Below the pieces are notes generated by a model. That model did no database searches. It saw only the letters and a program-made list of their open reading frames with translations, and had not been told where the DNA came from. Made by a program: the position numbers and the translations under genes. From Planctomycetota bacterium (GTDB lineage: Bacteria; Planctomycetota; UBA1135), in contig JASMMA010000006.1 of NCBI GenBank assembly GCA_030748415.1, positions 94,978 to 158,977 of the forward strand: DNA of 64,000 nt, written 5' to 3'. Shown here piece by piece: positions 36,433 through 64,000 of the stretch; the stretch's first letter is position 1; every line of letters starts with the position of its first letter.

Positions 36433-38871
36433 TCAAAAAGAAATTGGTCTCCCCGATGCACCAACTTGGAGAGGCCAGCCTAGAAACATTTGCTCAGGGC
36501 TGATTCCATCTGACCATCGCGGCCAAGCCTCAAGTGTGATTCGTTGCGAACTGGGTTTAAAGCGCACAATGCCATAACCCGGTGAACGATTGTGTAATAG
36601 TCGAGGTAAGCGGCCATCGTCTTTGGGATTTGCCACAGCCAATAAGGTGACGCGGTTTCCGAATCCGTCGAAATAATCGCCTGTGTACCGCGGCGCACCG
36701 ATGGGCTGGTTCTTGCCACGCTCCTTGGGCATCCAGCGCCGAGGCCATGTATTGCCCATAGCCGGACCTGAAAAAACAACAGTACCGTCACGGAAATCGT
36801 CTTTTCCGTACCAGGCAACTGAGCCCAAATGCTGGTCTCCAGTTAGATGTAAGGCACCCGCCCGGCTGAGGGACTTCACGGCTCGATCTCTAGCAGCCTG
36901 CGGCCACCCGTTTGAATCCGCATCCATGACTGGGATGTCGTTGGTGGGATATTCTCCGGGTTTTGGAGCGGGAAGCCTGCCGACTACCTGGTCACTTTTT
37001 TGTACTCCAGGCAAAGTATGCAGACATGCGAATGGAGATTGAGAAAGAACAACTTTGGTCCAAGTATCAGGCAACCGTTTTGTAGCCCAAGAATCTAAGA
37101 AATGCTCTTGCTCTACTCCCAACAATTGGAGACCTGGAGCATTGGCATCTTCGGGTTGGTAGTCTTCGGTTTGTGGCCACCCGTTTTTAAATTTCAACTG
37201 AGGTGCACCAACCGTTGGTGAATCTTTCCACATCCGGTCTGCAAGAACACAAAAATCAATGCCTCCCCAAACAAAAGAAGTTGTGTAGGTAGAGATTCCC
37301 TGCCCAATAAAGGGTGAGACTTGAGAGGGCGGCAAATGGGAAACTTGGGTGGAATGAACTGCATTTACAAATTTTGCCGGCATCTTGTATCCACCGGCAT
37401 CTTGCGCTGTTATGCCATTGCTCGCCTTGGCCAGTACACCACCAGCACCCCAAAGGTTCCCATGAAAAACATCGTGATCGTCGGGAATGCAAATCGTCGG
37501 CCTTACCCGGGTTAGATCACCAAAGCTCCATAGGAAACGCTGCCATTTTGTATGGTAGTCCAGAATAGAGTGCCATTCGCTTCGCCGGTCAACTCCCGTG
37601 ATGTCCCCCTCGTAAATTTGATCGCCAGCGAAAAAAATGAGGTCGGGATTCTGGGTCTGTATGCCACGGGAGATGTCGTTGTGGGGGAACCAAAGGCCAT
37701 TTGGATTCCAGGACAATGGGCCCACTTGGTTTTTTAAACAAGAAAGCAAAGCAAGGCTTACCTGTTTTCCCTTCTCTGGCTCCGCTCGAAGAATTCCATC
37801 GTACACCGGTTCCCCATTGAGGCGAACTTCAAAAGGAGTTGCTTGATGATGATTTCGTAGTGGAATTTCAAAGCGGGAAGTAAAGCTCCCATCCGTTTGA
37901 TATTCGCCAAGGAAAGAACTTTGGCCATTGAGACAGAGTTCTGTTTGGGGGATATCCTCTCGGTGGAGGATTGGGTGCTGGATAGTCATTCGAAGGGTTC
38001 TGGTTCCATTGTGATTCCGTGCAATGGTGTAAAGAGAACCCAAGATAGGTCCCCAAGCACGGTTTGGGTTTGCAACCGCACCATCTAGCTGGAAACTCTC
38101 AAACGAAAATCCAGTATTGGCGGTCTTCGATCCAAGCGCACTAAAGAGGGAGATTCCTCCAACTAGTTTTTCACGGGCGAAATCGGGGACTTTAAGTTGA
38201 GTTTGGATAAGGTCCCCCTCGTTAGCTTGGGCTAAAGCTTTCAGAGTGAGGTTTCCATCTTTCCAGGAAAGGTGCATGCGGATAGGTTGTAAATCAATAG
38301 GGAATGTTTGTTTTGATTCAGCAAGTAGAGGCAGTTTCCTGAAATCAATATTCCTCTGAATGGTCCAATAGCCTTTTTCTTTCAATGGCTGGGAAAAATC
38401 TCTTAGTGTTAGATGCCCATCAGAATCTAATGTGGCAAGAATGCCTCCACCTGGAGCGGGAGCCTGTTGAACCAAAGCGGTTGCGCGATAGTCAATGTTG
38501 TTTCCACCCATGCCGAAGAGGAAACCAAAGCAAGACCCGTCTTGAAGAGGCCCCAAGTCCGTTGCGCTGACAGAAACGCTTAGGTTGACTGGTTCGGTGC
38601 CTAGGCCGACTTCACGAGTAAGAAGATGAACAGTCCTGCCCGCTGGTCCTTTTTGGCCAGTAAGGCATCGAAGTTGTCCATCCTTAATCTCCCAGTCCTG
38701 GATTCTGTTTGCATGCCATTCCTTTCCAGGCCAGGGCTGGTCTGGGGAAGCTTGCCAAGAGTCAAGAAAGGGGAGAATCTGGGAATCTGTCCAGAATGAA
38801 GGGCCGGAGCACGAAAGGAAAATGACCGCAGGGAAAATCAAACTGAAGGCAGGGGTATGCATGGATTCCAA
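36433..38871 (-). CDS. PhoD-like metallophosphatase-fold lipoprotein (function uncertain)
   Basis: The lipobox is IFLSC. The C-terminal half has metallophosphoesterase-type blocks FFAGDQIYEGD, IPDDHDVFHGNLWG and LTGDQHLGS. The N-terminal ~380 aa is uncharacterised. Confidence 0.55.
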   Translation of the reverse strand: MESMHTPAFSLIFPAVIFLSCSGPSFWTDSQILPFLDSWQASPDQPWPGKEWHANRIQDWEIKDGQLRCLTGQKGPAGRTVHLLTREVGLGTEPVNLSVSVSATDLGPLQDGSCFGFLFGMGGNNIDYRATALVQQAPAPGGGILATLDSDGHLTLRDFSQPLKEKGYWTIQRNIDFRKLPLLAESKQTFPIDLQPIRMHLSWKDGNLTLKALAQANEGDLIQTQLKVPDFAREKLVGGISLFSALGSKTANTGFSFESFQLDGAVANPNRAWGPILGSLYTIARNHNGTRTLRMTIQHPILHREDIPQTELCLNGQSSFLGEYQTDGSFTSRFEIPLRNHHQATPFEVRLNGEPVYDGILRAEPEKGKQVSLALLSCLKNQVGPLSWNPNGLWFPHNDISRGIQTQNPDLIFFAGDQIYEGDITGVDRRSEWHSILDYHTKWQRFLWSFGDLTRVRPTICIPDDHDVFHGNLWGAGGVLAKASNGITAQDAGGYKMPAKFVNAVHSTQVSHLPPSQVSPFIGQGISTYTTSFVWGGIDFCVLADRMWKDSPTVGAPQLKFKNGWPQTEDYQPEDANAPGLQLLGVEQEHFLDSWATKRLPDTWTKVVLSQSPFACLHTLPGVQKSDQVVGRLPAPKPGEYPTNDIPVMDADSNGWPQAARDRAVKSLSRAGALHLTGDQHLGSVAWYGKDDFRDGTVVFSGPAMGNTWPRRWMPKERGKNQPIGAPRYTGDYFDGFGNRVTLLAVANPKDDGRLPRLLHNRSPGYGIVRFKPSSQRITLEAWPRWSDGISPEQMFLGWPLQVGASGRPISF

Positions 38872-38955
38872 GATACGAGAGCTGAGCTCCTATTCCATGT
38901 TTGTTGTTCGAATGAAAGAGCATTTGTCAATTGGAGACCTTTAGACTAACTCGGA

Positions 38956-40479
38956 ATGCTCCTAACCCTCGCCCTTGCCCTCGCCACCCCACTTTTCCAG
39001 GAGCCGGATACTTTTTCGTCGTTGTTCAATGGGGTTGACTTGCGTGGTTGGCGTGGGCGACCCCATTTGCAGCCTCATGCCGAAAAGTTTTGGTCTCCGG
39101 AAAAACGAATCGCTCAGCAAAAGGAGTGGGACGTAGATATGGAGAAGCACTGGTGTGTGGAATCTGGTGAAATCGTGAATGATGGCGCGGGTGTCTTTTT
39201 GACAACAGAAAGAGATTTCAGAGATTTTGACTTGCGTTTGGAATATAAAACGGTGGCTGGCGCTGACTCTGGGATTTATTTGCGAGCTTGCCCTCAAGTG
39301 CAAATATGGGATTGGACAAAAGAAGGAGGGAAGTGGGAACTTGGTGCGGGGAAGGGCTCGGGTGCTTTATGGAACAACATTGAGGAGTCACGATTTCCAA
39401 GCAAGAGAATGGACCGACCTTTTGGAGAATGGAATACCCTTCGGATTGTAATGATTGGTCCTCGCGTTTCCGTTTGGCTGAACGGGACACAGATTGTGCA
39501 CCACGTCCTCATGGAGAACTACTTTGATCGCTCATCTTCAGTACCCGAAAGTGGTCCGATTCAACTCCAGACTCACGGCGGAGAAATCCGATTTCGGAAT
39601 TTGAAGATTAAAGAGCTTTCTTCTGAAGAGGCCCTGAAGTGGCTGACCCAGGACGCCTCTTTTGAGGTTATGGGAGAAAAGGCATGGAGCCCAAAGCCAG
39701 GGAATTACATTGCCAGCTTTATTTTTGAGACTGAGGAAGATTTGCCCGATTGGATTCCTGGAGCAGAAGATTTTGAGAAATACCTCTATCCAACAGAATC
39801 GCTCAATATTCAGAGTGTTCGAGTGAGTGGAAGTCATGCAAAAGTTGAATGGAACGGTTTTCCAGTCTTTGAAGGGGATTGTTCTTTTTTAGGATCTGTT
39901 CGCGCGAGTGCTCGACACATTTGGGACCTTGGCAAAGCGCATTGGCGACCATCGGAATACCACCCTTGGAGACCTGTTGGAGAGGCAACATTTCTCCTTG
40001 AAAATGGAGTGCTTACGGGTAGCGGTGACTTTGGTCGGAACGCCTTCTTCATTTCTGAAGAGGAGTTTTCGGACTTCGAGTTGAATGTAGATGTGAAGTT
40101 GAACTCCGGAGGAAACTCCGGAATCCAGATTCGATCCAAAATTGACGCGAAGGGGAAAGTCTCCGGCTACCAAATTGAGATTGACGGAACTCCTCGCGCC
40201 TGGTCAGGCGGCCTCTATGAGGAGGCTGGCCGCGGGTGGTTGCAAAATTTAGAAGACAATCCAGAAGGAAGCTCGGCCTTTCGTGTGGATGAGTGGAACC
40301 ACTACAGAATTCTTTGTAGAGGGGAGCGTATCCAATCGTGGGTGAACGGAATCCCCTGCACGGATTTCCGGGATTCCAAGAGTAGGAAAGGCTTGATTGG
40401 TTTTCAGGTCCATAGTGGAGGCAAGACCAATGTTTCTTGGAGAAACTTGTTTATTCGAGAATTGGGCCCCGAGAAATGA
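38956..40479 (+). CDS. secreted protein with two DUF1080 (3-keto-disaccharide hydrolase-like) domains
   Basis: Domain 1 reads LFNGVDLRGWRG..W.VESGEIVNDG..L.T.RDFRDFDLRLEYK...DSGIYLR...GEWNTLRIVM.G.RVSVWLNG...GPIQLQTHGGEIRFRNLKIKEL. The second copy ends GLIGFQVHSGGKTNVSWRNLFIREL. Confidence 0.8.
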   Translation: MLLTLALALATPLFQEPDTFSSLFNGVDLRGWRGRPHLQPHAEKFWSPEKRIAQQKEWDVDMEKHWCVESGEIVNDGAGVFLTTERDFRDFDLRLEYKTVAGADSGIYLRACPQVQIWDWTKEGGKWELGAGKGSGALWNNIEESRFPSKRMDRPFGEWNTLRIVMIGPRVSVWLNGTQIVHHVLMENYFDRSSSVPESGPIQLQTHGGEIRFRNLKIKELSSEEALKWLTQDASFEVMGEKAWSPKPGNYIASFIFETEEDLPDWIPGAEDFEKYLYPTESLNIQSVRVSGSHAKVEWNGFPVFEGDCSFLGSVRASARHIWDLGKAHWRPSEYHPWRPVGEATFLLENGVLTGSGDFGRNAFFISEEEFSDFELNVDVKLNSGGNSGIQIRSKIDAKGKVSGYQIEIDGTPRAWSGGLYEEAGRGWLQNLEDNPEGSSAFRVDEWNHYRILCRGERIQSWVNGIPCTDFRDSKSRKGLIGFQVHSGGKTNVSWRNLFIRELGPEK

Positions 40480-42650
40480 TTTTAACTTTTTCTTTATGCG
40501 TCCTGGCGCAGGCGGGAGATATTGAGGATGATTCTCCGCAGATTGAGAACTGGAAGGAGTGGGAAGTGCCTTCTGCAAAAATTCTTTCGCCAAGTGAAGA
40601 GCTCGATAGTTTTGAAATTGCAGAAGGATTTGTTGTTGATTTAATCGCTTCCGAACCTCTCGTCGTCGATCCCGTTGCGGCGGCGTTTGATGAGAAAGGC
40701 CGAATGTGGGTTGTAGAAATGCGCGGGTTTATGCCCAATGTTGACGGCACTGGAGAAGAAGAATCGGTAGGCAAAGTGGTCGTATTGGAGGACTTGGACG
40801 GAGATGGAGTGATGGATCGCTCTACCCCGTTTTTGGAAGGCTTGGTATTGCCACGAGCAATCTGCATCGTAAAAGGTGGAGTTCTTGTTTTGTCGCCACC
40901 TCAGTTGTTGTTTTGCCAAGACTTAGATGGTGACCTTCGTTGCGACAAGAGAACACTAGTGGCGGATAATTGGACTGGTATCGCCTCACCCGAGCACGCT
41001 CCAAATGGAATGATTCATGGCTTGGATAATCGGATTCATTTTGCGAAGCATAATGCTGAGGCTTCTTGGATTAAGGGCGAATGGCAAACATGGCCCACCT
41101 CAGCCCAAGGTCAATGGGGTGTGACCATGGATAATTGGGGCCGCCTTTTTTTTAACACCAACTCTTCCATCCTCCATACCGATTTCGTACCGCGAAGATA
41201 CGGGAGAAGGAATATGAACTTTAACGGTCTTTGGGGTTTGGGCCGTAGAATCATGAAGGATCAAAGAGTTTGGCCTTCCCGAATTACGCCTGGCGTCAAT
41301 AGGGGATATCGCCCGGAGACCTTGCGATCGGATGGAACACTACTGACAGTAACTGGAACTTGCGGTCCAGGAGTTATTCGTGGGTCGGCCTTTTCTGAAA
41401 GTGAAAGAGGAAGTCTGTTAATTCCCGAGCCTTGCGCTAATCTTGTTAAGAGAGTTTATTTGGAACAAGAAGCTGGCGATATTCGCGCAAGGAATGCCCA
41501 GGAAGATGGCAAAGAATTTTGGACCTCAACTGATGAACGGTTTCGCCCCGTTAACGTAATTGATGGTCCGGGTGGCGCTACCTATGTCTTGGATTTTTAT
41601 CGCGGGTTAATTCAGCATCGTCTTTTTGTGACGACCTATCTTCGAAAGCAGGTCCTTAGTCGGGGACTTGATGAGCCGATTGGCCTCGGTCGAATTTGGC
41701 GCGTTCGACAAAAGGATGTAAAAGCCCAATCGGTAGAAGTTCCAGAAAAGATTGAGGGTTGGATACCTTTATTGGGGCATGCGGATGGCTTTTGGCGGGA
41801 TTCTGCCCAGCGCATGCTTGTGGAATCAGGCGATTCTACTTTGGGGCCTATGCTTGAGGTCGCTGTCCAAAAGAAGAACCCTCTCTTTTCTCTCCACGCT
41901 ATATGGTCTTTAAAGGGCTTGGGTCTCCTGAAAGAAAAAACAGCAGCTTGGGCGTTGGAGAATGCGGGCTCCAAGGAACTGCCTTCCATTATCCAGGCAT
42001 CTGAGTCACTTCTGCCCGGAAAGGATGGGGGTCTTTTGAGGCTTCTCCATCGCCGAGCGGTGCGTGGCGACTTGTTCACGAAGCGGCAGGCTGTTCTAAG
42101 TTTGTTAAGTTGCCAGGATGATATGGCCCAAAGACTTGCTTTGGATTTGTTCTTTGACAACCTCCAAGATCCAATTATTGCGACTAGCTTGGCAACTGTT
42201 CCCCAAGACCTTTCTGTTGAATTGTTGAAAAAGATTAGGGCAGACAGTCGCTTTGATTCAGGAGATAAGACCATCCTTGGCGCACAGACTTCATTGGTTA
42301 GAGCGGGCAAAATCGCAGTCTCGAGTGAATCCGAATCACTGGTTTATGCGAGGGCGTGTTTGGCTTGCCATGGTGCGGATGGATTAGGGCAGCCCGGTTT
42401 GGCGCCCCCTTTGAACGACCCTGCTTGGCTTGGAAAGTCAAAAGAAGAGTTGATTTCTATTGTTCTTAATGGACTGGAGGAGCCGATTCAGGTGAATGAG
42501 GAAACATGGAACCAGTCAATGCCCGCCTGGAGGGCATTGCTCAGTGACGCAGATATTGCCGAAGTCTTGAATGATATACAGCGTCGATTCAATCCTAACC
42601 CACAAATATTTACAAAAGAAAAAGTGAGATTGGTGAGGACGGGTGAATAG
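40476..42650 (+). CDS. PVC-type putative dehydrogenase propeller / HEAT-like repeats / C-terminal c-type cytochrome domain
   Basis: The start is re-set to ATG 40476 (ATGA overlap with the upstream stop), giving signal MILTFSLCVLAQA. The N-domain reads EGFVVDLIASEPLVVDPVAAAFDEKGRMWVVEM...LEDLDGDGVMD...CQDLDGD. The C-terminus has CLACHGADG (CxxCH) with a downstream Met (NQSMPAW). Confidence 0.8.
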   Translation: MILTFSLCVLAQAGDIEDDSPQIENWKEWEVPSAKILSPSEELDSFEIAEGFVVDLIASEPLVVDPVAAAFDEKGRMWVVEMRGFMPNVDGTGEEESVGKVVVLEDLDGDGVMDRSTPFLEGLVLPRAICIVKGGVLVLSPPQLLFCQDLDGDLRCDKRTLVADNWTGIASPEHAPNGMIHGLDNRIHFAKHNAEASWIKGEWQTWPTSAQGQWGVTMDNWGRLFFNTNSSILHTDFVPRRYGRRNMNFNGLWGLGRRIMKDQRVWPSRITPGVNRGYRPETLRSDGTLLTVTGTCGPGVIRGSAFSESERGSLLIPEPCANLVKRVYLEQEAGDIRARNAQEDGKEFWTSTDERFRPVNVIDGPGGATYVLDFYRGLIQHRLFVTTYLRKQVLSRGLDEPIGLGRIWRVRQKDVKAQSVEVPEKIEGWIPLLGHADGFWRDSAQRMLVESGDSTLGPMLEVAVQKKNPLFSLHAIWSLKGLGLLKEKTAAWALENAGSKELPSIIQASESLLPGKDGGLLRLLHRRAVRGDLFTKRQAVLSLLSCQDDMAQRLALDLFFDNLQDPIIATSLATVPQDLSVELLKKIRADSRFDSGDKTILGAQTSLVRAGKIAVSSESESLVYARACLACHGADGLGQPGLAPPLNDPAWLGKSKEELISIVLNGLEEPIQVNEETWNQSMPAWRALLSDADIAEVLNDIQRRFNPNPQIFTKEKVRLVRTGE

Positions 42651-42732
42651 GGGGCTTTCCTAATAATTATTATGTTGTTTTCGATTTGCATCATGAACTA
42701 ACAAGGCGAAAGGCTTGGTAGGCTATAACTCT

Positions 42733-43641
42733 ATGCACATTGCCCTTGCTACTTGCTCTAACCTCCCGGATTGGGAGACTGATGACCTCCCACTGCACTT
42801 GGCTCTTATGGATCGTGGTGCAGAGGTTTTTCATCCCGCATGGGATGATTCTGACTTTGATTGGGCTCAGATGGACGCATGTTTGATTCGTACTGCTTGG
42901 GATTACCATCTCCGCCAAGGGGAATTTGTGGCGTGGGCGCAGGCTGTGGAACGTAAAACGCGTCTATTTAATCCATCTGTCGTAGTCGACTGGAACACGA
43001 ACAAGCTCTACCTGCGCGAGTTGGCCGAGCAGGGAGTGCCTGTGATTGACACCGAATGGTTGAATCAGGGCTCCCGTGTCGATCTCGGCCAGCTTCTGAA
43101 ACGGAGCGGTTGGCCCCGCGGCTTCTTGAAGCCTGTTGTTGGTTCGACAGCCTACGGCACTTGCCGCTTCGAGAGCCATGGCGATTCCTTAGTCGCAGCG
43201 CAGCAATTCCTGGACAAAATGCTCATTGACCATTCCATGCAGCTGCAACCTTATCTGGAGAAGGTGGAAACCCAAGGCGAGGAGTCGATGCTCTTTGTGG
43301 ATGGGGAGTATGCCCATTCGGTGCGCAAGATCCCGGTACCCGGTGATTACCGTGTTCAAGATGACCATGGCGCTTCCGATGAAGCTATTGAGCATACGGC
43401 AGAGGAGATTGATCTTGGCCGTTCCGTGTTGCGCCTAGTCGAGCAACATTCCATGTGGGGCGAGAATCAACGATCTAAGCCGCTACTTTATGGGAGGGTC
43501 GATTGGCTGCGTGATGACCAAGGGGCGTTACGCCTATGCGAGCTGGAGGTGGTGGAGCCAAGTCTTTTTTTACGCCATAGCCCAAACACCGCCGACTTGC
43601 TCGCTGTTGCCCTGATTAAGCGAATCCGTGCCGAGGAATAG
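42733..43641 (+). CDS. ATP-grasp-fold protein (RimK/glutathione-synthetase-like), cytoplasmic
   Basis: The start is re-set to MHIALATCS. The layout is a pre-ATP-grasp domain followed by FLKPVVGSTAYG...LQPYLE...GEESMLFVDGEYAHSVRK.P..GDYRVQ, typical of stand-alone ATP-grasp ligases. There is no signal peptide. The gene is visibly GC-richer than its neighbours. Confidence 0.55.
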   Translation: MHIALATCSNLPDWETDDLPLHLALMDRGAEVFHPAWDDSDFDWAQMDACLIRTAWDYHLRQGEFVAWAQAVERKTRLFNPSVVVDWNTNKLYLRELAEQGVPVIDTEWLNQGSRVDLGQLLKRSGWPRGFLKPVVGSTAYGTCRFESHGDSLVAAQQFLDKMLIDHSMQLQPYLEKVETQGEESMLFVDGEYAHSVRKIPVPGDYRVQDDHGASDEAIEHTAEEIDLGRSVLRLVEQHSMWGENQRSKPLLYGRVDWLRDDQGALRLCELEVVEPSLFLRHSPNTADLLAVALIKRIRAEE

Positions 43642-43670
43642 GTTGTCGAAGTCGTGTCCCTTTTGTTGGC

Positions 43671-46514
43671 TTAACGGCGAACAATCATTTTCCCCTGCAT
43701 AAGTTTCCAGTGACCAGGGAAAGTGCAGACATAATCATATTTCCCGACTTTCTGGGGTGCTATAAATTCAATAATCTGGCTCTCCATGTGGTTTAGGAGC
43801 TTTGAACTCGCAATGATTTTTTCGCTCGTTGGGACAAAGCCTTGGTTGAAGCCCGCCGCCCCAAGAGCCTCAGCAGCAAGACCGAGCTCTTCTGCAGAAT
43901 CGGGCATCCCGATAATCAAATTGTGCGGCATAAAATCTGGGTTAAAAAACCATAGCCTTACCGGTTTGCCCGCTTGAACCTCAAAAGATTCAAGGTCGTA
44001 GCTCATTTTTTCAGGAACCGTTTGAAGGACAATCGCTCCTTTCGGTGGAGTTTGCGACGGTTGATTATTTGTTCCAAGGCCTTTTGTGTCATTTAAGAAA
44101 TTTGGCTTTGATTGAGAATGAGTCCACATTCCCTCGACCCTCTGCGCAGCGATTCGAGCATGCGCATTGGGGGAGTTGAGGAGAGTGTTGAGTAAACTTT
44201 GATTTTTCACATTGTGTTGCTGATGAATCCACAAAGCCTCAAGGAGATGATGGGCATCGCTTTCGTCGCGGATATCAAATTGGGAAGCCCACTCTTGAGT
44301 CAAGCGAATCACTTCTTCGCTATTCCTAGCGGACAATTCCACGCGTACCCGGTGCCGAATCCCATTGATGGGGCTCTTGAGTAGCTCGAGAAGTTCCGGA
44401 ATAGGGCGGCCATAGACCGAGACATGCGGAGCCAGTGGGCGGTTCTTTGCAGTGATTCGGTATATTCGACCATGGGCATGGTCTCTCTCTGGATCTCGAA
44501 CATTATGTTGCATATGCCCGACGATGGCATTGCACCAGTCTGAAACATAGAGGGCGCCGTCGTCGCCCACTTCAAGGTCTGTTGGCCGGAAGTTCGGATC
44601 TTCGGAGGCAATAAGATCCTCTACCTCTGTTCCGTTTACCTCTCCTGTTGCCGTATCGAAATCAAGGTTGTATTGTTTTAACCCCAAAAAGGCAATGGTG
44701 TTGCAGAGTAGGAAGTTCCCTTGAAATGAGTCTGGGAAGTGGCTACTTGAAAGGATTCCACTGGATGCAACCGGTCGTACTGTTTGATTGAGCAGCTTCC
44801 GCATTTTGAAACTTCCATCTCCATCACTGACAACTTGAAAGGCCCGACCGCCTGTTCCGTCAGTAGCATAGTGGTATCCCCAATAATCAAAGCTAATACC
44901 GTGTGGGTTGGGGCTATTTTCGGCATGGAAGCTGAACTCATGGGTTCTCGGATTGAAACGATACATGCCGGACCTTGAAGATTCTTGGTTTGCTTGCCAA
45001 GGCGTTTCAACATTTGAAACAAGGAAAATCCCTCTTTGATAGTAAAGAAAACCATCAGGCCCTAAAACAAAGTTGTTCGCGGCATGGTGCGTATCCGCCG
45101 AATCTAGCCCTTCAAGTATTCGATAACGAACATCGGCGATGTCATCACCATCGGTATCCTTGAGGAAGATGAGGCCAGGTGTTGATGCAACAATGACGCC
45201 CCCATTCCAGAATTCAAATCCAGTTGGATTATGCACATAGGCGAAGGTAATTGCTCGATCGGCTACGCCGTCTCGGTTGTCATCCGGAAGAATGATTAAG
45301 CAATCACCCATTTCTTTCATAGGTTCCCATTTCGGGTAAGTTTTCCATGCCGCAACCCACATACGTCCTTTTGGGTCAACGCCGAGCTGCACTGGATTGA
45401 CCAATTCCGGAAACATTTCTTCTGAGGCGAATAGATTGACTTCAAGGCCATCTTGAAGCGTCATTTTTTCGATTGCCTCTATCCCGCCTAAGTAGGACCC
45501 ATCCCCAAGTTTGCTAATGCCACTTTGGAGCTGTTCCTTGTCTAAATTTGTGGTGACTTTTATAGATTCTGGAACATTCTCGTCGTCCGCTATTGCACTT
45601 TCTCCCCTTGCAATTTTCCAGATGACCTCGTCTCGATTCCTCGTCATGACATCAAGCTGAGATAGTTCGTGCTGGAGAACATCTCGATTGGATTGATTAT
45701 CGGTGAACTTTAAGTCTGCACGAGAGCCCCAGATATCGTTCCCATCCGTGGCCCGATACCGGTTGTGCCAATGCCAATTCTTGTCCAATACAGCGCTCCG
45801 GAGAGTCTCCAAATTGGTTTTGAGTCGATCCTTTTTTTCCCCGAAGAGTTTGTCGGCGATAATGCCCGCCACAAGCTTGTTTCCCTGAGAGTTCAAATGG
45901 ATACCGTTGATGGTGAAGGCATCTTTGCTCATCGAATACTGATGCAACGTGGGTGTGAAAAGGTCAATAAATTCAACACCGTCTTCACGGGCAACATCTT
46001 CCATTGCCGCAGCTATTGCAGCAAGGCGTGGATTGTTCAAGGAACCATCAGGGAAGTTCGGGTTTTCGAGGTTTTGGTGGGCCGTGGGGGAAATGAGAAG
46101 GATTCTTGGTGGCCCCTTTCCAGAGTAGTTTTGAGATTGTGTATGTTGAATCCAGTTCGATATTGCGTTTTTGAAGGCCAAGGGGTCTTCGTCAAAGGAC
46201 TCGTTGTAGCCAAACATGGCAAAAATAACTGTAGCACCAGATAACTTGAGGTAATCATCCGGGCCGAGGAAGTCCTTATTCCTCGGGCGATAATCAATTC
46301 GGTCGCCAGCGAACCCATGGTTCCGGATGGTAAGATTTAATCCGATTGTTTCTGTTTGAAGTATCGCTTCTAGCCATCCATCATGCTGCATTCTGTCGGC
46401 GATCCCTCCGCCAAGAATGACAAGGTGGTCATCAGGTTGGAAAAAGCTGGTTTCTCGCCCGCAGGCGGGGAGAAGGAGGCAACCTAGAATTATCTTGGGG
46501 AAGAGAGTCTTCAT
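43671..46514 (-). CDS. tri-domain lipoprotein: SGNH-like domain, PVC-type dehydrogenase propeller with HEAT-like region, C-terminal azurin-like type-1 copper domain
   Basis: The lipobox is LLLPAC. The propeller block LEVNLFASEEMFPELVNPVQLGVDPKGRMWVAAW...LPDDNRDGVAD...LKDTDGDDIAD is paralogous to 40476-42650. The C-terminus has MPHNLII and YVCTFPGHWKLM, which supply the azurin Cu ligands His/Cys/His/Met. Confidence 0.8.
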   Translation of the reverse strand: MKTLFPKIILGCLLLPACGRETSFFQPDDHLVILGGGIADRMQHDGWLEAILQTETIGLNLTIRNHGFAGDRIDYRPRNKDFLGPDDYLKLSGATVIFAMFGYNESFDEDPLAFKNAISNWIQHTQSQNYSGKGPPRILLISPTAHQNLENPNFPDGSLNNPRLAAIAAAMEDVAREDGVEFIDLFTPTLHQYSMSKDAFTINGIHLNSQGNKLVAGIIADKLFGEKKDRLKTNLETLRSAVLDKNWHWHNRYRATDGNDIWGSRADLKFTDNQSNRDVLQHELSQLDVMTRNRDEVIWKIARGESAIADDENVPESIKVTTNLDKEQLQSGISKLGDGSYLGGIEAIEKMTLQDGLEVNLFASEEMFPELVNPVQLGVDPKGRMWVAAWKTYPKWEPMKEMGDCLIILPDDNRDGVADRAITFAYVHNPTGFEFWNGGVIVASTPGLIFLKDTDGDDIADVRYRILEGLDSADTHHAANNFVLGPDGFLYYQRGIFLVSNVETPWQANQESSRSGMYRFNPRTHEFSFHAENSPNPHGISFDYWGYHYATDGTGGRAFQVVSDGDGSFKMRKLLNQTVRPVASSGILSSSHFPDSFQGNFLLCNTIAFLGLKQYNLDFDTATGEVNGTEVEDLIASEDPNFRPTDLEVGDDGALYVSDWCNAIVGHMQHNVRDPERDHAHGRIYRITAKNRPLAPHVSVYGRPIPELLELLKSPINGIRHRVRVELSARNSEEVIRLTQEWASQFDIRDESDAHHLLEALWIHQQHNVKNQSLLNTLLNSPNAHARIAAQRVEGMWTHSQSKPNFLNDTKGLGTNNQPSQTPPKGAIVLQTVPEKMSYDLESFEVQAGKPVRLWFFNPDFMPHNLIIGMPDSAEELGLAAEALGAAGFNQGFVPTSEKIIASSKLLNHMESQIIEFIAPQKVGKYDYVCTFPGHWKLMQGKMIVRR

Positions 46515-46544
46515 GTAGAACTAAAGGTTACCCTTACCTCACCC

Positions 46545-47591
46545 ATGGTTTGTCTTCCCGCCCCCCGAATTTTTTTATTGCTTTTGTTTTTGTGCTTATC
46601 ATCTTGTGTGTCACATCGCAATGAAAATGCCCGCTGGCTTCACTTTCCTGGAGGTGAAGGGATTGGAGAAGGTTATCGAGTTGTTTTTGCTTCAGGTGAT
46701 GAGGAATATCGGTCGGAGGAATCCCTTCCGATGTTGGCCCGTCTACTTTCAGAGCACCATGGCTTTGAGACAGTTGTTTTATTTTCCCAAGATCCTGAAA
46801 CGGGAATGGTGAATCCCGACAATTTGTCTAATATTCCTGGAATCAAGCAGATTAGGGATGCAGATCTTTTTGTGATGCAATGGAGATTTCGCGAATTGCC
46901 CGATGAGGATATGAAGGTTGTTCTGGACTATATTGAATCCGGAAAGCCAATCATCGGAATCCGGACTTCAACACATGCATTCAATTACATCAAGAATCCA
47001 TCTAGTCAGTATGCGAAGTGGAGTTGGAAAAGTGAAGAGCCCTCGGGTGGATTTGGTAGAGAAATTTTTGGCGAGACTTGGATTGCACATCATGGTAAGC
47101 ATGGCAAACAGGCTACGCGGGGAGTTATTGCAAAGGCCAATTCAAGGCACCCCGTTCTGCGTGGTGTCAAGGATGTCTTTGGGCCAACTGATGTATACGC
47201 CATTCGGAAATTGCCGGATGATGCCTTAGTACTACTAAACGGCGCGGTGCTTGAAGGAATGTCCCCTTCGTCTCCCATTCTTAAAAGCCCAAAGAATAAC
47301 CCGATGCACCCCGTAGCTTGGATTCGTAATCGACCGGTCTCTCAGGAAGGTACTCAGAGGGTTTTTGTGACTACAATGGGCGCAGCGCAAGATTGGTCTT
47401 GTGAGGATTTGAGGCGCTTGTTTATGAATGCCTCGGCTTGGTGCCTCCGGCTTGATGAGAACATTCCTGTCACGGGACTCGCCGCGGAAATGATAGGGCC
47501 TTGGGCTCCAACATCGTTTGGGTTTGGGGGTTACCGAAAGGGATATTACCCTGAGGATTATCGAGACGGCTCTCCTTGGGAATCCGATTAG
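46545..47591 (+). CDS. ThuA-like (class I glutamine-amidotransferase-fold) lipoprotein
   Basis: The lipobox is CLSSC. YRVVFASGDEEYRSEESLPMLARLL...DADLFVMQWRFRELPDEDMKVVLDYIESGKPIIGIRTSTHAF...HHGKHG is consistent with the trehalose-utilisation ThuA domain layout. This call rests on pattern only. Confidence 0.55.
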   Translation: MVCLPAPRIFLLLLFLCLSSCVSHRNENARWLHFPGGEGIGEGYRVVFASGDEEYRSEESLPMLARLLSEHHGFETVVLFSQDPETGMVNPDNLSNIPGIKQIRDADLFVMQWRFRELPDEDMKVVLDYIESGKPIIGIRTSTHAFNYIKNPSSQYAKWSWKSEEPSGGFGREIFGETWIAHHGKHGKQATRGVIAKANSRHPVLRGVKDVFGPTDVYAIRKLPDDALVLLNGAVLEGMSPSSPILKSPKNNPMHPVAWIRNRPVSQEGTQRVFVTTMGAAQDWSCEDLRRLFMNASAWCLRLDENIPVTGLAAEMIGPWAPTSFGFGGYRKGYYPEDYRDGSPWESD

Positions 47592-48931
47592 TCACCCAAA
47601 TCGTCTTGACCGTAAACATAACGGTTGAATAGAGTCTGAAGTTTACTATTTCCACTCTTTTCAATGAGGAAGGATTCCATTTCTTGAGTCGAGGCGGTTT
47701 GAAGCGCATTTTCCTTGAAGAAATCGCTCATGATTGAGCGGAGTTTTTTCTCTCCAATCAGGTGAGCTACTCGGGCGAAAAATTGAGCACCCTTGCCGTA
47801 AGATTGTCTGGCGGTGATTCGATTCCACGGGTTTGAGCCGCAAAGAGTGATTGCTTCCCCTGGTTTTGAGAAATCCATATGGGAGTAACGACCGCCATCC
47901 GCAAACCAAACATCCCAGGCCTCATCCCACCATGCGTCGTTTTGAGAGCGAGGTTTTACGCCGCGACCAAACCAACTGTGGAAAATCTCGTGCCGAATGG
48001 CGCCGTAGGCTGTTGTAGTGGCGCCGTCGTATTCCATGGAGCCAGAAGAGTCCCGCAAATAAACCGTGCAACGATCTCCATGAGGCCAAGGGCCAACGGT
48101 TTTGCTGAAATCTCGAAGGGCCTCAGACACTTTTTTATGGGCTGACTTCAGGGAGCCACTTGATTTCTTATCCTTAGCAATTGTGACTTTAATTTTTTGA
48201 TCCTTAACGCATTTGACTGTTTTTGTGGAGACTTCAATATCAGCTTTTGGGGCGATGACCAACATTGGGGAGAAGGCCGTTGTGTATTCGGGCCACCTAA
48301 GGCGCCAGCTGTGGCGGTCGAGTTCTTCCACATCGGCGTTTGTAAAAATCAAGTGCTCGTGCTTTGCATTCTTAAGTTGAAGCTCCAACTCAAAAGAAAA
48401 CCGGTCATAGATGAGATTTGCAGGAAACCACTGTTCTAGATAACGACCGGGCTTTAAGTCCGTGAAGTTCGTGCTGAAGAACAGACCATTTTCGCGTTTT
48501 AAGGCGCCGCGGGCAGCAGGCGCATCAGGAGCCTCAAGGTCGTAGGCCAGTTGCAGTATGCTTGGCGCACCTGCTTGGATTTCCCACTCAAGGAGGCGCA
48601 TGGTTCCAGATTGTGGACCCATGTCGAAAGTAGAAACCGTTTCAGGTTTGATGGGTTTCATGTCAAGGGTTGCAGAGCGAATGTTCTGACGAAGATCAAA
48701 AATGGGGTAACCTGTTTCCCCTACTTTAAAAACCAAGTCAGCTGTGGCTTCTTTGGTTCGAGCCTCAAGGTCAAAAATAAGAGTGGCAGAAAGGGACTGG
48801 ATATCCATTGGAACGCCGAGCAGGCCATCTACTTCTCGAGCGGGTGGGGCAAAAGAGAGGTCGTCCGAGAGATTATCTTGGAGAGGCCAAAGGCCAACTG
48901 CGAGGGCTACGATGGGGAGTATCATCCCCAT
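47588..48931 (-). CDS. secreted M1-like gluzincin peptidase candidate
   Basis: The signal is MGMILPIVALAVGLWP. HEIFHSWFG is followed by exactly 18 residues and then Glu in WWDEAW (HExxH-x18-E). The stop overlaps the convergent ThuA-like gene by 4 nt. Confidence 0.7.
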   Translation of the reverse strand: MGMILPIVALAVGLWPLQDNLSDDLSFAPPAREVDGLLGVPMDIQSLSATLIFDLEARTKEATADLVFKVGETGYPIFDLRQNIRSATLDMKPIKPETVSTFDMGPQSGTMRLLEWEIQAGAPSILQLAYDLEAPDAPAARGALKRENGLFFSTNFTDLKPGRYLEQWFPANLIYDRFSFELELQLKNAKHEHLIFTNADVEELDRHSWRLRWPEYTTAFSPMLVIAPKADIEVSTKTVKCVKDQKIKVTIAKDKKSSGSLKSAHKKVSEALRDFSKTVGPWPHGDRCTVYLRDSSGSMEYDGATTTAYGAIRHEIFHSWFGRGVKPRSQNDAWWDEAWDVWFADGGRYSHMDFSKPGEAITLCGSNPWNRITARQSYGKGAQFFARVAHLIGEKKLRSIMSDFFKENALQTASTQEMESFLIEKSGNSKLQTLFNRYVYGQDDLGD

Positions 48932-48979
48932 ATCCTAAACAAAATTAGCTTGGAGTTCTGAGAGTCGTAAACTGTTCTT

Positions 48980-49222
48980 ATGGATCCCGTCATCTTGCTC
49001 ATTGTTCTGGCTGGCATCTTATTGCTTGCCTTGACTTGGCTTCGGCCCGGAAATGTTGCGAAGTGGGTGTTTTCATTAGTGGGGTTTTTGCTCATCCTGC
49101 AGGGGAGTCTCGGGGCTCTCCATGCTTGGGGCGAATCTCAGCAAATCGGTTGGATCCTTGGGTGGGTACTCGTTGTAATTTTGTTTTGCATTTTGATTCC
49201 ATTGAGATGGCGACGTCATTGA
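48980..49222 (+). CDS. small (80-aa) membrane protein, 3 predicted TM segments
   Basis: Three hydrophobic stretches are present: ILLIVLAGILLLALTWL, WVFSLVGFLLILQGSLGAL and IGWILGWVLVVILFCILI. It ends in a basic tail (RWRRH). No homology was recognised. Confidence 0.45.
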   Translation: MDPVILLIVLAGILLLALTWLRPGNVAKWVFSLVGFLLILQGSLGALHAWGESQQIGWILGWVLVVILFCILIPLRWRRH

Positions 49223-49261
49223 TGGAAAAGTGGATTGAATGGGGTGGCAGAGTTATATTAA

Positions 49262-49362
49262 GTTGGTCATCCAGATGAGCTGAGGGATAGGCCCTTTGAA
49301 GCTCGGCCAACCTGCCGAAAGGTATGGTGGCAATACCTACGCAAAAGCGAATGATGGCGATA
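49262..49362 (+). promoter_or_regulatory. SAM-I (S-box)-like riboswitch aptamer upstream of the yitJ-like/metH operon
   Basis: The P1 helix is GUCAUC (49266-49271) paired with GAUGGC (49353-58). Conserved S-box strings appear in the correct order: GAGGGA, GGCCC..UGAAG, GGC(C)AACC, GGUG(G)CAAU(A)CC, a short P4 (CGC-AAAA-GCG), then the closing AUGAUGG. The downstream gene is the same fusion type as B. subtilis yitJ, a classic S-box gene. Confidence 0.7.
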
Positions 49363-49391
49363 CGGGCTCTGCTCTCTTCGCCGCCGAGTCC

Positions 49392-54200: not shown

Positions 54201-54751
54201 AATTGGAAGAAGTCCATTTGTCCAAGGCCGAATTACCTGTCCTTCTTTTCCCGAGGCAACTTCGGGATGGGGGAAAGAATCGACCAAACCGCTGCCTTGC
54301 AGATTTTATTTCCAATAGCCCTGGCGACCACCTTGGGGCTTTCGCTGTAACTTCTGGTCTTGGCCTAGAGGAACTTGTTTTGAGCGCCGAAGAGCAAAAT
54401 GATGATTACCGTGCATTGCTCTTGAAGACGATTGCCGATCGCCTTGCGGAAGCTTCTGCGGAGTGGTTGCACTTCCAGGTTCGCACGAAATTTTGGGGTT
54501 ATGCTCCCAATGAAGTTTTAGAGCAGAGCAATCTTCTTAAAGAAAAATACCAAGGGATTCGTCCTGCTCCAGGATATCCAGCGTGCCCGGACCTTGTTTT
54601 AAACCGTGACATTTTGGCACTTCTGGATGAAAGCGGCGCGGCAGGGCTTCAGGTTACCGACTCGAATGCACTTTTGCCGGCCTCCTCAGTATGTGGTTTC
54701 TACTTCGCACGACCCGAAGCACACTACTTTGGAATTGGCAAAAGCAGTTAG
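51269..54751 (+). CDS. metH: cobalamin-dependent methionine synthase
   Basis: All four modules are present: Hcy-binding ([24 protein letters not shown]), pterin-binding, the B12 cap plus Rossmann fold with [10 protein letters not shown], and the AdoMet reactivation domain ([13 protein letters not shown]). It spans 1160 aa, and its start overlaps the upstream stop (ATGA). Confidence 0.95.
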
Positions 54752-54993
54752 CTTTTCGATAACCGAATAATGTCCACGGGGCAACCATCCACTGCTATCT
54801 GAATGTCCTCGCGGTCCATCGCTAAGGCATCGGAACGAAAAAACCCCCGCTCGTCTACGCCACCCTTTAGAACGGCTAGGCCATCTTCGTTCATTTCGAA
54901 ATAAGAAGGGATTGTCTCCGCGCAAAGGCAGCAACCAATGCATTCAGATGCTTTATGTCGAATGACGCATTTCGATTGGTTTGTGGTCCGCAT
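54748..54993 (-). CDS. small [4Fe-4S]/[3Fe-4S]-type ferredoxin
   Basis: This 81-aa protein has C-x2-C-x2-C (CIGCCLC) plus a distal C-P (DGCP). It lies 2 nt downstream of the U32 gene. Confidence 0.65.
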   Translation of the reverse strand: MRTTNQSKCVIRHKASECIGCCLCAETIPSYFEMNEDGLAVLKGGVDERGFFRSDALAMDREDIQIAVDGCPVDIIRLSKS

Positions 54994-54995
54994 GA

Positions 54996-58683: not shown

Positions 58684-58730
58684 ACCAAGATTCTACGCTG
58701 TCCGATTGATGCAGTGAAGCCGGTGGCACT

Positions 58731-61248: not shown

Positions 61249-61257
61249 TAATTCAGC

Positions 61258-63888: not shown

Positions 63889-64000
63889 GTCCTCATATGC
63901 TACGAATGAGCAGGCGGAATCGTGTGCTGAATGCGGGGAGGCACTAGAATCCGCTCTTCATGCGACTTTCCCAGCAGTTGTTCGTGACTTTGCGGGAAGA

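Follow-up and report, generated by a model that had tools for sequence, protein, structure and literature searches.

Two conserved gene pairs linking DUF7133 propeller proteins with haem c or type-1 copper to DUF1080 and ThuA-like partners in a Planctomycetota genome

The region between positions 38956 and 47591 of the window (the whole 64,000-nucleotide stretch of Planctomycetota DNA that was analyzed) contains two separate conserved two-gene modules: module A, which encodes a tandem-DUF1080 protein and a propeller protein with haem c, and module B, which encodes a ThuA-like lipoprotein and a propeller protein with type-1 copper. Both propeller proteins probably oxidize sugars outside the cytoplasm. 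The fuller scheme, in which each propeller would oxidize a periplasmic carbohydrate or glycoside via its own electron carrier, the partner proteins would handle product or substrate, and no Fe/Cu backup would be involved, is given an even chance. The features of the region are as follows.

38956..40479, plus strand: tandem-DUF1080 protein of the 3-keto-disaccharide-hydrolase family (module A gene 1), 507 aa, N-terminus short and hydrophobic; PF06439 in two stretches
40437..42650, plus strand: DUF7133 propeller, helical (HEAT-like) linker and c-type cytochrome (module A gene 2), from HMM matches
42357..42371, plus strand: CLACH, the sole CxxCH haem-attachment motif of the haem propeller, residues 628-632 of the 724-aa form, from a motif search
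42715..43641, plus strand: ATP-grasp ORF, DcsG-like, 308 aa, without signal peptide; NF058666, PF02955
43671..46514, minus strand: copper lipoprotein with SGNH-like domain, DUF7133 propeller, HEAT and type-1 copper cupredoxin, 947 aa (module B gene 1)
45873..46382, minus strand: SGNH/GDSL-like domain of the copper protein, residues 45-214; PF13472
44445..45479, minus strand: DUF7133 six-bladed propeller of the copper protein, residues about 346-690
43680..44033, minus strand: cupredoxin domain of the copper protein, residues 828-945; ligands H864, C930, H935, M939
46545..47591, plus strand: ThuA-like lipoprotein, 348 aa (module B gene 2); PF06283

The first-pass annotation had described four signal-peptide or lipobox proteins in this region and treated them as one system. 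The genes are real, and every domain assignment (DUF1080, ThuA, PVC dehydrogenase, cytochrome c and cupredoxin) holds in profile-HMM searches, but the fifth ORF, the ATP-grasp protein lacking a signal peptide, was missed. This cytoplasmic protein, encoded between the haem propeller and copper protein genes, matches NF058666 at 179.9 bits, under the cut-off of 360, as well as PF02955; homologues are absent from 80 Cu-type loci and 20 DUF1080 loci, and the ORF probably lies outside both modules. The idea of a single four-gene system does not hold: the modules have different partners and seldom adjoin elsewhere, a second, haem-type propeller being found nearby in 3 of the 80 Cu-type loci and DUF1080 in 4. 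Both the tandem-DUF1080 protein and the haem propeller have short putative signal peptides, assessed by eye.

In module A, the tandem DUF1080 reading of the first gene is borne out by two PF06439 domains (E 1.1e-78; 264 bits, cut-off 26.8), the second of which (residues about 335-505) shares 39-52% identity with the DUF1080 proteins next to haem-type orthologues. As the annotation had noted, the gene is coupled to the next one by an ATGA, its TGA stop overlapping the ATG at 40476 of the haem propeller gene. This ATG yields a 724-aa protein, and an alternative in-frame TTG at 40437 yields 737 aa with a more canonical signal peptide, so that the overlap is 4 or 43 nt; a homologue 90% identical to the haem propeller (P0121) is likewise 737 aa long. 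The protein matches PF23500/DUF7133 (E 2.3e-93, 314 bits) and TIGR02604 (185.9 bits, cut-off 122.2), and its cytochrome c domain scores above the cut-off with both PF13442 (E 4.2e-8, 33.8 bits) and PF00034 (32.2 bits). The C-terminal CxxCH seen at first pass is the single such motif and falls inside the cytochrome c match; Met682, in SMPAW, is a candidate axial ligand, a role assumed from family knowledge. HEAT_2 is present in orthologues of this protein.

The pairing with DUF1080 is conserved. Among the 16 genomes of the phylum with a 41-48% identical haem-type orthologue, 9 encode a DUF1080 protein within 6 kb of it or fused to it, as in the 1250-aa DUF7133, cytochrome c and DUF1080 fusion L135, against an estimated chance expectation of a few percent (the genomes, of about 3-9 Mb, had no more than seven scored DUF1080 places each). 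The other 7 orthologues have no DUF1080 match anywhere on their own contigs, and of 20 loci with orthologues of the tandem-DUF1080 protein, identified through its N-terminal domain, just 2 have a DUF7133 gene no more than 8 kb away. Further neighbors of the haem-type orthologues include xylose-isomerase-like TIM barrels, Gfo/Idh/MocA proteins, a ROK kinase and MFS sugar transporters. Elsewhere in this genome, a second locus on contig C22 encodes a DUF7133 and DUF1080 fusion and a fusion of DUF7133, HEAT, cytochrome c and ThuA, adjoined by genes for Gfo/Idh/MocA, xylose-isomerase-like TIM-barrel and DUF1080 proteins. The DUF1080 partner would bind or cleave an oxidized (keto-)glycoside: BT2157, a DUF1080 3-keto-glucoside hydrolase, is reported to hydrolyze 3-keto-trehalose (PMC8121099), and the described overlap of DUF1080 with CBM66 would also allow mere sugar binding (PMC5673643).

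The copper protein of module B had been introduced as a paralogous propeller with an azurin-type C-terminus. The motifs and the four type-1 copper ligands support this description, but the gene is on the minus strand, the SGNH-like domain had gone unmentioned, and identity to the haem-type propeller is only 27%. The protein matches PF23500 (E 1.3e-63, 216 bits) and TIGR02604 (195.7 bits, cut-off 122.2), has homologues of 59-92% identity in several phyla, and was modeled by AF2 with a pLDDT of 81. Ligands H864, C930, H935 and M939 align to those of auracyanin A (2aan, E 2.3e-13) and are conserved in 51, 51, 50 and 50 of 51 homologues, respectively; in Foldseek, the domain superposes on auracyanin A (2aan, TMt 0.87, rmsd 1.7) and on 6kol (TMt 0.87). 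It scores 35.2 bits with the azurin equivalog TIGR02695, under the cut-off of 105.1, and 20.5 with Pfam Cupredoxin_1, where the cut-off is 27. The SGNH-like domain is detected by PF13472 (E 9e-11, 43 bits, cut-off 32.9). SGNH/GDSL hydrolases carry their nucleophilic serine in block I, in the GDS motif; here the position, 37, assigned by reading the alignment and located just outside the Pfam match on its N-terminal side, is occupied by glycine, and the usual serine is lacking in 47 of 51 homologues (G24, A23, S3, T1). In block V, Asn203 replaces the aspartate and His206 is retained.

The neighboring gene, described at first pass as encoding a ThuA-like lipoprotein, does so by both measures, with a PF06283 score of 43.7 bits (cut-off 33.4) and an N-terminus ending in LSSC. 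The AF2 model (pLDDT 92.8) is closest in fold to the ThuA-like structures 4e5v, 1t0b and 4jqs, and also to 4pxy (TMt 0.56-0.66). The two genes of module B are divergent, with start codons 30 nt apart, and the pair occurs in three gene orders. The Cu-type orthologue has a ThuA-like gene no more than 300 bp away in 21 of 80 loci, that is, in 21 of the 56 testable ones, from four phyla: 6/6 in Acidobacteriota, 7/7 in Gemmatimonadota, 4/4 in loci labeled Bacteroidota and 4/24 in Planctomycetota, where it is missing from the other 20 testable loci, as it is from all 15 testable loci of Verrucomicrobiota. The 1961-aa protein L053 fuses ThuA, SGNH, DUF7133, HEAT, F5/8C, cupredoxin and cytochrome c in one chain. 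Conservation of the neighborhood is thus found far above background for DUF1080 with the haem type (9/16) and for the ThuA-like gene with the Cu type (21/56 plus one fusion), but as two pairs and not as four genes together.

The ThuA-like partner would be a second catalytic or substrate-handling subunit. By a hand count of 120 listed longer proteins containing the domain, 40 also have PF23500, 18 PF06439 and 23 PF00127, and two (P0257, P0357) combine ThuA-like, cupredoxin and cytochrome c domains without a propeller. Fusions with many unrelated hydrolases (FGE-sulfatase, glycoside hydrolases, esterases, amidohydrolases) exist as well, and the domain may serve as an accessory module of general use. 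A scan of 10 ORFs at 33993-54751 detected no ThuB-type Gfo/Idh/MocA gene; the genome has five PF01408 places, the nearest on the same contig about 38 kb before the window.

The annotation had also proposed that one catalytic scaffold is wired to alternative Fe or Cu carriers. Such swapping does occur within the copper protein's own orthologous family, as two relatives 55-60% identical to it (L027 and L038) have a cytochrome c where the cupredoxin would be; the two propellers of the window are only 27% identical over 410 aligned positions (E 1e-22). Among 71 members of the SGNH-type family, 37 carry copper, 20 copper and haem, 3 haem only and 11 neither; a carrier domain with complete metal ligands is kept in 60 of the 71 and has changed at least 7 times on the family tree. 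The suggestion of a metal-availability backup, with one catalytic function encoded twice, in haem and copper versions, for times of iron or copper scarcity, would suit the location of two DUF7133 genes with different carriers 1 kb apart in a 2.46-Mb genome that has only about 5 DUF7133 ORFs, as well as the swap seen in L027 and L038. It is nevertheless very unlikely, and the specific Fe/Cu idea is probably wrong: the propellers have diverged to 27% identity, the SGNH-like domain is found in the copper protein only, each propeller has its own conserved partner (DUF1080 for the haem type, a ThuA-like protein for the Cu type), just 3 of the 80 Cu-type loci have the two types as neighbors, and copper and haem stand in tandem on one chain in 20 of 71 relatives, in series as in a relay rather than as alternatives. 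The two propellers are probably old paralogues, different enzymes with different partners, and the difference in partners points to different substrates.

The propeller structure, as predicted and compared with Foldseek, is six-bladed and resembles that of PQQ sugar dehydrogenases. The Cu-type propeller is matched by HHIP, TTHA0570, 3a9g, the soluble glucose dehydrogenase (sGDH) 1cq1 and AA12 (E 1e-10 to 4e-12), at 12-15% identity; for the dehydrogenases 1cq1, Asd (2g8s), 3a9g and the AA12 enzyme 6jt5 the E-values span 1e-9 to 4e-11, and the sGDH type of fold is further indicated by 2ism and 1qbi. In sequence the relationship is distant: neither window propeller matches PF07995 (GSDH) at E <= 0.01, and a profile built from 36 propellers reaches E. 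coli Asd only at E 0.0082. A bridge is provided by a DUF7133-ThuA fusion in the same genome, which matches both PF23500 (5.2e-27) and PF07995 (1.1e-6), and a 351-aa GSDH protein matches PF23500 weakly. Each enzyme, as a member of the DUF7133/TIGR02604 family, combines a six-bladed propeller, a helical spacer of HEAT-like type and a one-electron carrier of its own. Electrons would leave through the enzyme's own haem or copper center to soluble carriers and from these to the genome-encoded haem-copper oxidases, a possible sink, COX1 genes (470 bits) being present.

As for the cofactor, pqqC has no match in the 90.6%-complete genome, although the pqqC control likewise matched in no genome, and the best pqqE match in this genome, 55 bits, is far under the cut-off of 381, which leaves PQQ unsupported. 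This bears on a possible but unlikely alternative, in which the propellers would act in redox reactions on a non-carbohydrate substrate, or would contain a His-bound metal center in place of an organic cofactor, with DUF1080 and the ThuA-like protein being generic binding or scaffold modules of the envelope. Eight histidines are invariant in the Cu-type propeller (476, 477, 530, 538, 592, 667, 670, 681), some in loops of low model confidence (471-478, 666-668), and nitrous oxide reductases, which combine a propeller with a cupredoxin, are among the weaker Foldseek matches (E about 1e-9, TMq 0.20); the diversity of enzymes fused to the ThuA-like domain and the CBM66 overlap of DUF1080 (PMC5673643) are also compatible with generic roles. 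However, just two of the histidines, 477 and 670, are common to the haem-type subfamily, the haem-type orthologues have sugar-related neighbors (MFS sugar transporter, ROK, TIM barrels, Gfo/Idh/MocA), and carbohydrate-binding-type domains (F5/8 type C, PA14) occur within the long forms of the Cu-type family. A bolder proposal, likewise doubtful, is that the copper protein and its ThuA-like partner form an undescribed class of periplasmic oxidoreductase, whose propeller would hold a His-ligated metal or new cofactor site, not PQQ, built from the eight histidines, whose ThuA-like subunit would be catalytic and electron-coupled, in keeping with the propeller-free fusions P0257 and P0357, and in which a Cu-to-haem relay would run along the chain in long forms and in trans in short forms such as this one. 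Were this so, ThuA would at last acquire a biochemical role.

The sugar-oxidase reading must also be weighed against hydrolysis. The family had been regarded as experimentally uncharacterized, which is not wholly so, since Lac161_ORF7 (GenBank AGW45552), from a Chthoniobacter-like verrucomicrobium of a soil metagenome and similar to the haem propeller in its described architecture (TIGR02604, HEAT, CxxCH cytochrome c), was purified and reported as a beta-galactosidase that releases glucose from lactose with a Km of 1.8 mM and a kcat of 13.2 per s (PMC5342196). This sole purified DUF7133-family relative counts against the redox reading, and in planctomycete genome papers TIGR02604 and DUF1080 are listed as putative GH families (PMC7397252, PMC5352709). 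Under such a view the propellers would be glycoside hydrolases of a "beta-propeller-type", DUF1080 a further glycosidase, and the haem and copper domains non-catalytic. This is quite unlikely: the lactose assay used a coupled glucose-oxidase readout on C-terminally tagged protein from E. coli cytoplasm, with no haem analysis mentioned in the available part of the report, the Lac161 cosmid complemented S. meliloti and not E. coli (PMC5342196), a carrier kept in 60 of 71 relatives and exchanged at least 7 times is hard to square with a plain hydrolase, and the fold neighbors are dehydrogenases and binding proteins, with no glycosidases among them.

The window proteins belong, as unremarkable members, to a huge and little-studied family, but their functional links are useful. 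There are thousands of DUF7133/TIGR02604 proteins, commonly found in Planctomycetota, Verrucomicrobiota, Acidobacteriota, Gemmatimonadota and Bacteroidota, and their biochemistry is covered by a single report in the literature searched. The pairings and fusions supply concrete testable partners, DUF1080 for the haem type and a ThuA-like protein for the SGNH-like copper type. Should these proteins oxidize sugars in the periplasm and pass the electrons to the respiratory chain, they would represent a large unrecognized route by which marine and soil bacteria use carbohydrates, and ThuA would gain a function as well.

Among known systems, the PQQ sugar dehydrogenases sGDH (1cq1), Asd (2g8s) and 3a9g and the AA12 pyranose dehydrogenase (6jt5) share with the window propellers an extracytoplasmic six-bladed propeller, whereas the window proteins stand apart by their 12-15% identity, HEAT spacer, type-1 copper or haem c on the same chain, and SGNH-like domain. 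Fungal AA12 enzymes can also bear a cytochrome domain. Auracyanin A and azurin have the His-Cys-His-Met ligands and the fold of the window cupredoxin, but are free carriers, whereas the latter is the C-terminal domain of a 947-aa enzyme. With the ThuAB system of Sinorhizobium and Agrobacterium, which converts trehalose to 3-ketotrehalose, the window ThuA-like protein has the Pfam family and fold in common; it differs in being a lipoprotein without a ThuB (Gfo/Idh/MocA) neighbor, is 12-14% identical to solved ThuA-like proteins, and belongs to a subfamily that occurs in fusions with propellers, cupredoxin, cytochrome c and a large number of hydrolases. BT2157 of Bacteroides thetaiotaomicron, for which alone 3-keto-glycoside hydrolysis is known within PF06439, shares this family with the tandem-DUF1080 protein, is predicted to be periplasmic and acts on oxidized disaccharides; its partners are described as Tat-exported Gfo/Idh/MocA dehydrogenases, whereas in the window DUF1080 is duplicated and partnered by a DUF7133-cytochrome c protein (PMC8121099).

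The two propeller proteins encoded at positions 38956-47591 of the window, one with a haem and one with a copper carrier, are distinct enzymes, each with its own partner. The window covers 94978-158977 of contig C65 in a 2.46-Mb, 90.6% complete genome. The first-pass annotation had described four extracytoplasmic proteins in this part, and the description was largely right in that all four genes are present; it lacked a fifth open reading frame (ORF), the minus-strand placement of the copper (Cu) protein gene and the SGNH-like domain of that protein. The five ORFs are the following:

38956-40479, plus strand: DUF1080x2 protein, 507 aa, with two PF06439 domains (E 1.1e-78)
40437 or 40476 to 42650, plus strand: haem protein, with PF23500 (2.3e-93), TIGR02604 (185.9 bits) and a cytochrome c domain
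42715-43641, plus strand: ATP-grasp ORF, 308 aa, DcsG-like (179.9 bits against a cut-off of 360), without signal peptide
43671-46514, minus strand: Cu protein, 947 aa, in which DUF7133 (1.3e-63) follows an SGNH/GDSL-like domain and precedes helical, HEAT-like sequence and a C-terminus of azurin type
46545-47591, plus strand: ThuA-like protein, 348 aa, with PF06283 above cut-off

The ATGA overlap of the first two genes, noted at first pass, is real. A TTG at 40437 provides the haem protein with an upstream alternative start, giving a signal peptide that looks better by eye and a length of 737 aa, the same as that of the 90%-identical homologue P0121; a motif search finds one CxxCH in this protein, at residues 628-632 of the 724-aa form that starts at ATG 40476. 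Lipobox-like N-termini were recognized by eye in the Cu protein (LPAC) and the ThuA-like protein (LSSC), the genes of which are divergent (46514-46545) with start codons 30 nt apart, so that either at least one promoter lies within the neighboring gene or one of the starts has been called wrongly. Simple scans of 38700-47800 yielded 6 promoter sites versus 8.6 in shuffles, with nothing between the divergent starts, and 13 terminator sites versus 12.3, uninformative counts that are lower, or no higher, than those of the shuffles. The ATP-grasp ORF, the product of which is cytoplasmic and resembles the D-cycloserine synthetase DcsG, lies between the DUF1080-haem gene pair (module A) and the Cu-ThuA gene pair (module B) and is convergent with the Cu gene across a 30-nt gap. 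This ORF and the M1-peptidase-like and PhoD-like genes were rejected as parts of a system, no homologue being found in 80 loci of the Cu-type family; the flanking genes (BNR-sulfatase, PhoD-like, M1-peptidase-like and methionine synthase) have unrelated functions, as hydrolases or in housekeeping.

Both propellers belong to the DUF7133 family (PF23500/TIGR02604) and are distant paralogues, with 27% identity over 410 aligned positions (E 1e-22). The family of the Cu protein is tightly conserved, its members being about 950 aa long: among 7999 candidates scored, 5101 matched the Cu protein at E <= 0.001. The best 120 of these, found in Planctomycetota, Gemmatimonadota, Bacteroidota and other groups, share 59-100% identity with it across 95-100% of its length. 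One 92%-identical homologue is labelled as a marine Planctomycetes MAG, and existing source names of the relatives include [quoted passage not shown] and "GDSL-type esterase/lipase family protein". For the haem protein, a member of the classic "PVC-type heme-binding CxxCH protein" group, there were 3341 matches among 7999 scored, most of the relatives being 40-50% identical.

The Cu protein was modeled with AlphaFold2 from a 51-row alignment (mean pLDDT 81), and the model was compared with the PDB using Foldseek. The fold neighbors of the modeled propeller are HHIP, TTHA0570, the PQQ sugar dehydrogenase 3a9g, sGDH and AA12 enzymes, with E from 4e-12 to 1e-9 and 12-15% identity. The modeled C-terminal domain resembles auracyanin A (TMt 0.87, rmsd 1.7), to which the sequence also aligns (E 2.3e-13) with four of four copper ligands in register; these ligands are conserved in 50-51 of the 51 homologues. 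Eight histidines of the Cu-type propeller are invariant (476, 477, 530, 538, 592, 667, 670 and 681), only His 477 and His 670 being shared with the haem-type subfamily, and the model is of low confidence in few places, which include the loops carrying His 476/477 and 667. The SGNH-like domain is devoid of the usual nucleophile: by our reading of the alignment, the presumed block I Ser position is occupied by Gly in 24, Ala in 23, Ser in 3 and Thr in 1 of the 51 homologues, and by Gly in the window protein. Pfam GSDH matches neither window propeller; DUF7133 paralogues elsewhere in the genome match both PF23500 and GSDH. A profile of 36 propeller domains retrieved from PDB sequences mostly generic NHL/teneurin blade motifs, and reached Asd (2g8s) only at E 0.0082. 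The genome encodes haem-copper oxidases; its pqqE match is far below the cut-off and pqqC has no match, a weak negative given that the pqqC control was positive in 0 of 14 control genomes. The ThuA-like protein was modeled with high confidence (pLDDT 92.8), and its best fold matches, 12-14% identical, are three "ThuA-like" proteins from structural genomics, none of which, to our knowledge, has a known activity.

The partner of the Cu protein is the ThuA-like gene. Screening a single genome from each species identified 586 relatives of the Cu protein, of which the best 80 loci were retained; in 21 of these, a ThuA-like homologue (36-61% identical, tblastn) lies no more than 300 bp from the Cu-type gene. 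When only testable loci are counted, that is, those with flanks of 1.1 kb or more on each side or with a ThuA-like match, the pairing is found in 21 of 56: all of those from Acidobacteriota (6/6), Gemmatimonadota (7/7) and genomes labelled Bacteroidota (4/4), 4 of 24 from Planctomycetota and none of 15 from Verrucomicrobiota. Sorted by identity of the anchor to the window Cu protein, the pairing is present in 18 of 22 testable loci at 56% identity or more, 3 of 15 at 49-56% and 0 of 19 below 49%. The ThuA-like gene is upstream on the same strand in 16 loci, divergent as in the window in 3 and downstream in 2. In L053, a locus labelled Fuerstiella, a single 1961-aa chain comprises ThuA, SGNH, DUF7133, HEAT, F5/8 type C, the Cu motif and CxxCH. 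Among the 120 listed of 788 matches to longer proteins containing the window-type ThuA-like domain, hand counts gave PF23500 in 40, PF00127 in 23, PF06439 (DUF1080) in 18 and PF00127 together with a cytochrome c family in 13. Fusions of ThuA-like, cupredoxin and cytochrome c domains without a propeller (P0257, P0357) or of ThuA-like, PQQ-type eight-bladed propeller and cytochrome c domains (P0332, P0358) also occur, and further fusion partners are FGE-sulfatase, glycoside hydrolase, esterase and amidohydrolase domains.

The carrier itself varies within the Cu-type family. Classified by motif, 71 members with complete C-termini comprise 37 with Cu only, 20 with Cu followed by CxxCH, 3 with haem only (L027, L038 and L073) and 11 with neither. 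The first two of the haem-only members are confirmed by Pfam as SGNH, DUF7133 and Cytochrom_C proteins and show 60% and 55% identity, respectively, with the window Cu protein. Among the 11 members with neither carrier, 7 were judged to be broken or cut frames. Four proteins of 883-918 aa (L064, L065, L076 and L079) have SGNH, DUF7133 and HEAT regions and no carrier domain at all, and group on the tree as two pairs apart from each other; any electron partner of these proteins would have to be encoded elsewhere. A FastTree phylogeny of 64 propeller regions, built after exclusion of 14 further rows that were cut, broken or short, implies at least 7 changes of carrier state versus a possible minimum of 3, on an unrooted tree built by a quick method with states called from motifs. 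The proposal made at first pass that either haem or copper can serve the same scaffold thus holds true in evolution. The accompanying proposal, that the two carriers are an iron/copper backup for changing metal availability, is probably wrong, because Cu and haem in tandem in 20 of the 71 members indicate a relay and the two window genes have different partners. Nor is the span one system: haem-type and Cu-type propellers adjoin in only 3 of the 80 Cu-type loci. DUF1080 is found near the Cu type in 4 of the 80. One Cu-type locus (L029:1511-3067, plus strand) also encodes a 518-aa protein in which an SMP-30/gluconolactonase-like propeller is fused to a plastocyanin/azurin-type domain, another propeller wired to copper.

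The haem type is linked to DUF1080. Among 201 genomes of the phylum, 16 besides the window's own carry a haem-type orthologue at 41-48% identity, and in 9 of these a DUF1080 protein, 39-52% identical to domain 2 of DUF1080x2, is encoded within 6 kb on the same contig. The DUF1080 gene is adjacent and convergent in G071 and G127, directly downstream in G056, G106, G147, G166 and G199 and 5.6 kb away in G191, and G004 encodes a Pfam-confirmed 1250-aa fusion of DUF7133, cytochrome c and DUF1080. These nine genomes represent five family codes, and four are close kin; the domain-2 query detected no link in the other 7 of the 16 or in three weaker-match genomes. Other neighbors of haem-type orthologues include xylose-isomerase-like TIM barrels, Gfo/Idh/MocA proteins, ROK kinase, MFS sugar transporters and DUF6807.

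One result speaks against a simple picture of module A. Of 20 loci with orthologues of DUF1080x2 (N-terminal domain, 47-65% identical), only 2 contain DUF7133 within 8 kb, so the window protein apparently combines a free-standing DUF1080 type with a propeller-linked type. In the sister genus G138 (loci L113 on C17 and L149 on C19), the closest relatives of the two domains are different genes, a 490-aa tandem protein for domain 1 (63-65%) and a separate 211-aa ORF for domain 2 (55%), which suggests, from sequence comparison, domain recombination in the window protein. The domain-2-type gene of G138 is free-standing: tblastn detected no propeller within 8 kb of it. Domain 1 matches in G056, G070, G095, G106, G147, G166 and G173 contain one in-frame TAG, with open frames of 235-331 aa, and may represent simple read-through past the gene end or a split gene.

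A second locus of the same genome (L001 and L002; C22:26000-45999 and 46000-64000) encodes a 1109-aa fusion of DUF7133, HEAT, cytochrome c and ThuA, an 805-aa DUF7133-DUF1080 fusion that follows a cytochrome c gene, one DUF1080 protein, GSDH, three xylose-isomerase-like TIM barrels, a Gfo/Idh/MocA protein, a multihaem TPR protein and a sulfatase/FGE-like protein. This locus provides independent support, within one organism, for cooperation of the three families, also with sugar-converting enzymes. A family-level ThuA search of the genome gave 1 candidate and missed the window gene, being insensitive for this subfamily.

Apart from the unity of the system and the metal backup, the spirit of the first-pass interpretation stands: the span probably encodes an extracytoplasmic, sugar-oxidizing function linked to DUF1080 and ThuA, where redox catalysis by the window propellers, their substrate and their cofactor are what we infer. 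The purified DUF1080 protein BT2157, needed for growth on several disaccharides, hydrolysed more than 70% of 3-keto-trehalose within a minute, and ThuAB is termed in the same paper a cytochrome c-dependent 3-ketoglycoside dehydrogenase (PMC8121099); another paper describes DUF1080 as a proposed xanthan backbone glycosidase overlapping CBM66 (PMC5673643). Searches of the open literature yielded no paper linking ThuA with cupredoxin/azurin, sorbosone dehydrogenase or GDSL, no mechanistic paper on ThuA/ThuB and a sole report on the biochemistry of TIGR02604. In that report, Lac161_ORF7 purified from E. coli liberated glucose when given lactose, as read out by coupled glucose oxidase, and complementation by its cosmid succeeded in S. 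meliloti but failed in E. coli (PMC5342196). Two planctomycete genome papers treat TIGR02604 proteins as putative beta-propeller glycoside hydrolases (PMC7397252, PMC5352709). Against this background, the window genes are unexceptional within a huge family that is catalogued but functionally little studied, and for which the conserved partner pairs, the fusions, the absent SGNH nucleophile and the repeated exchange of carriers are new.
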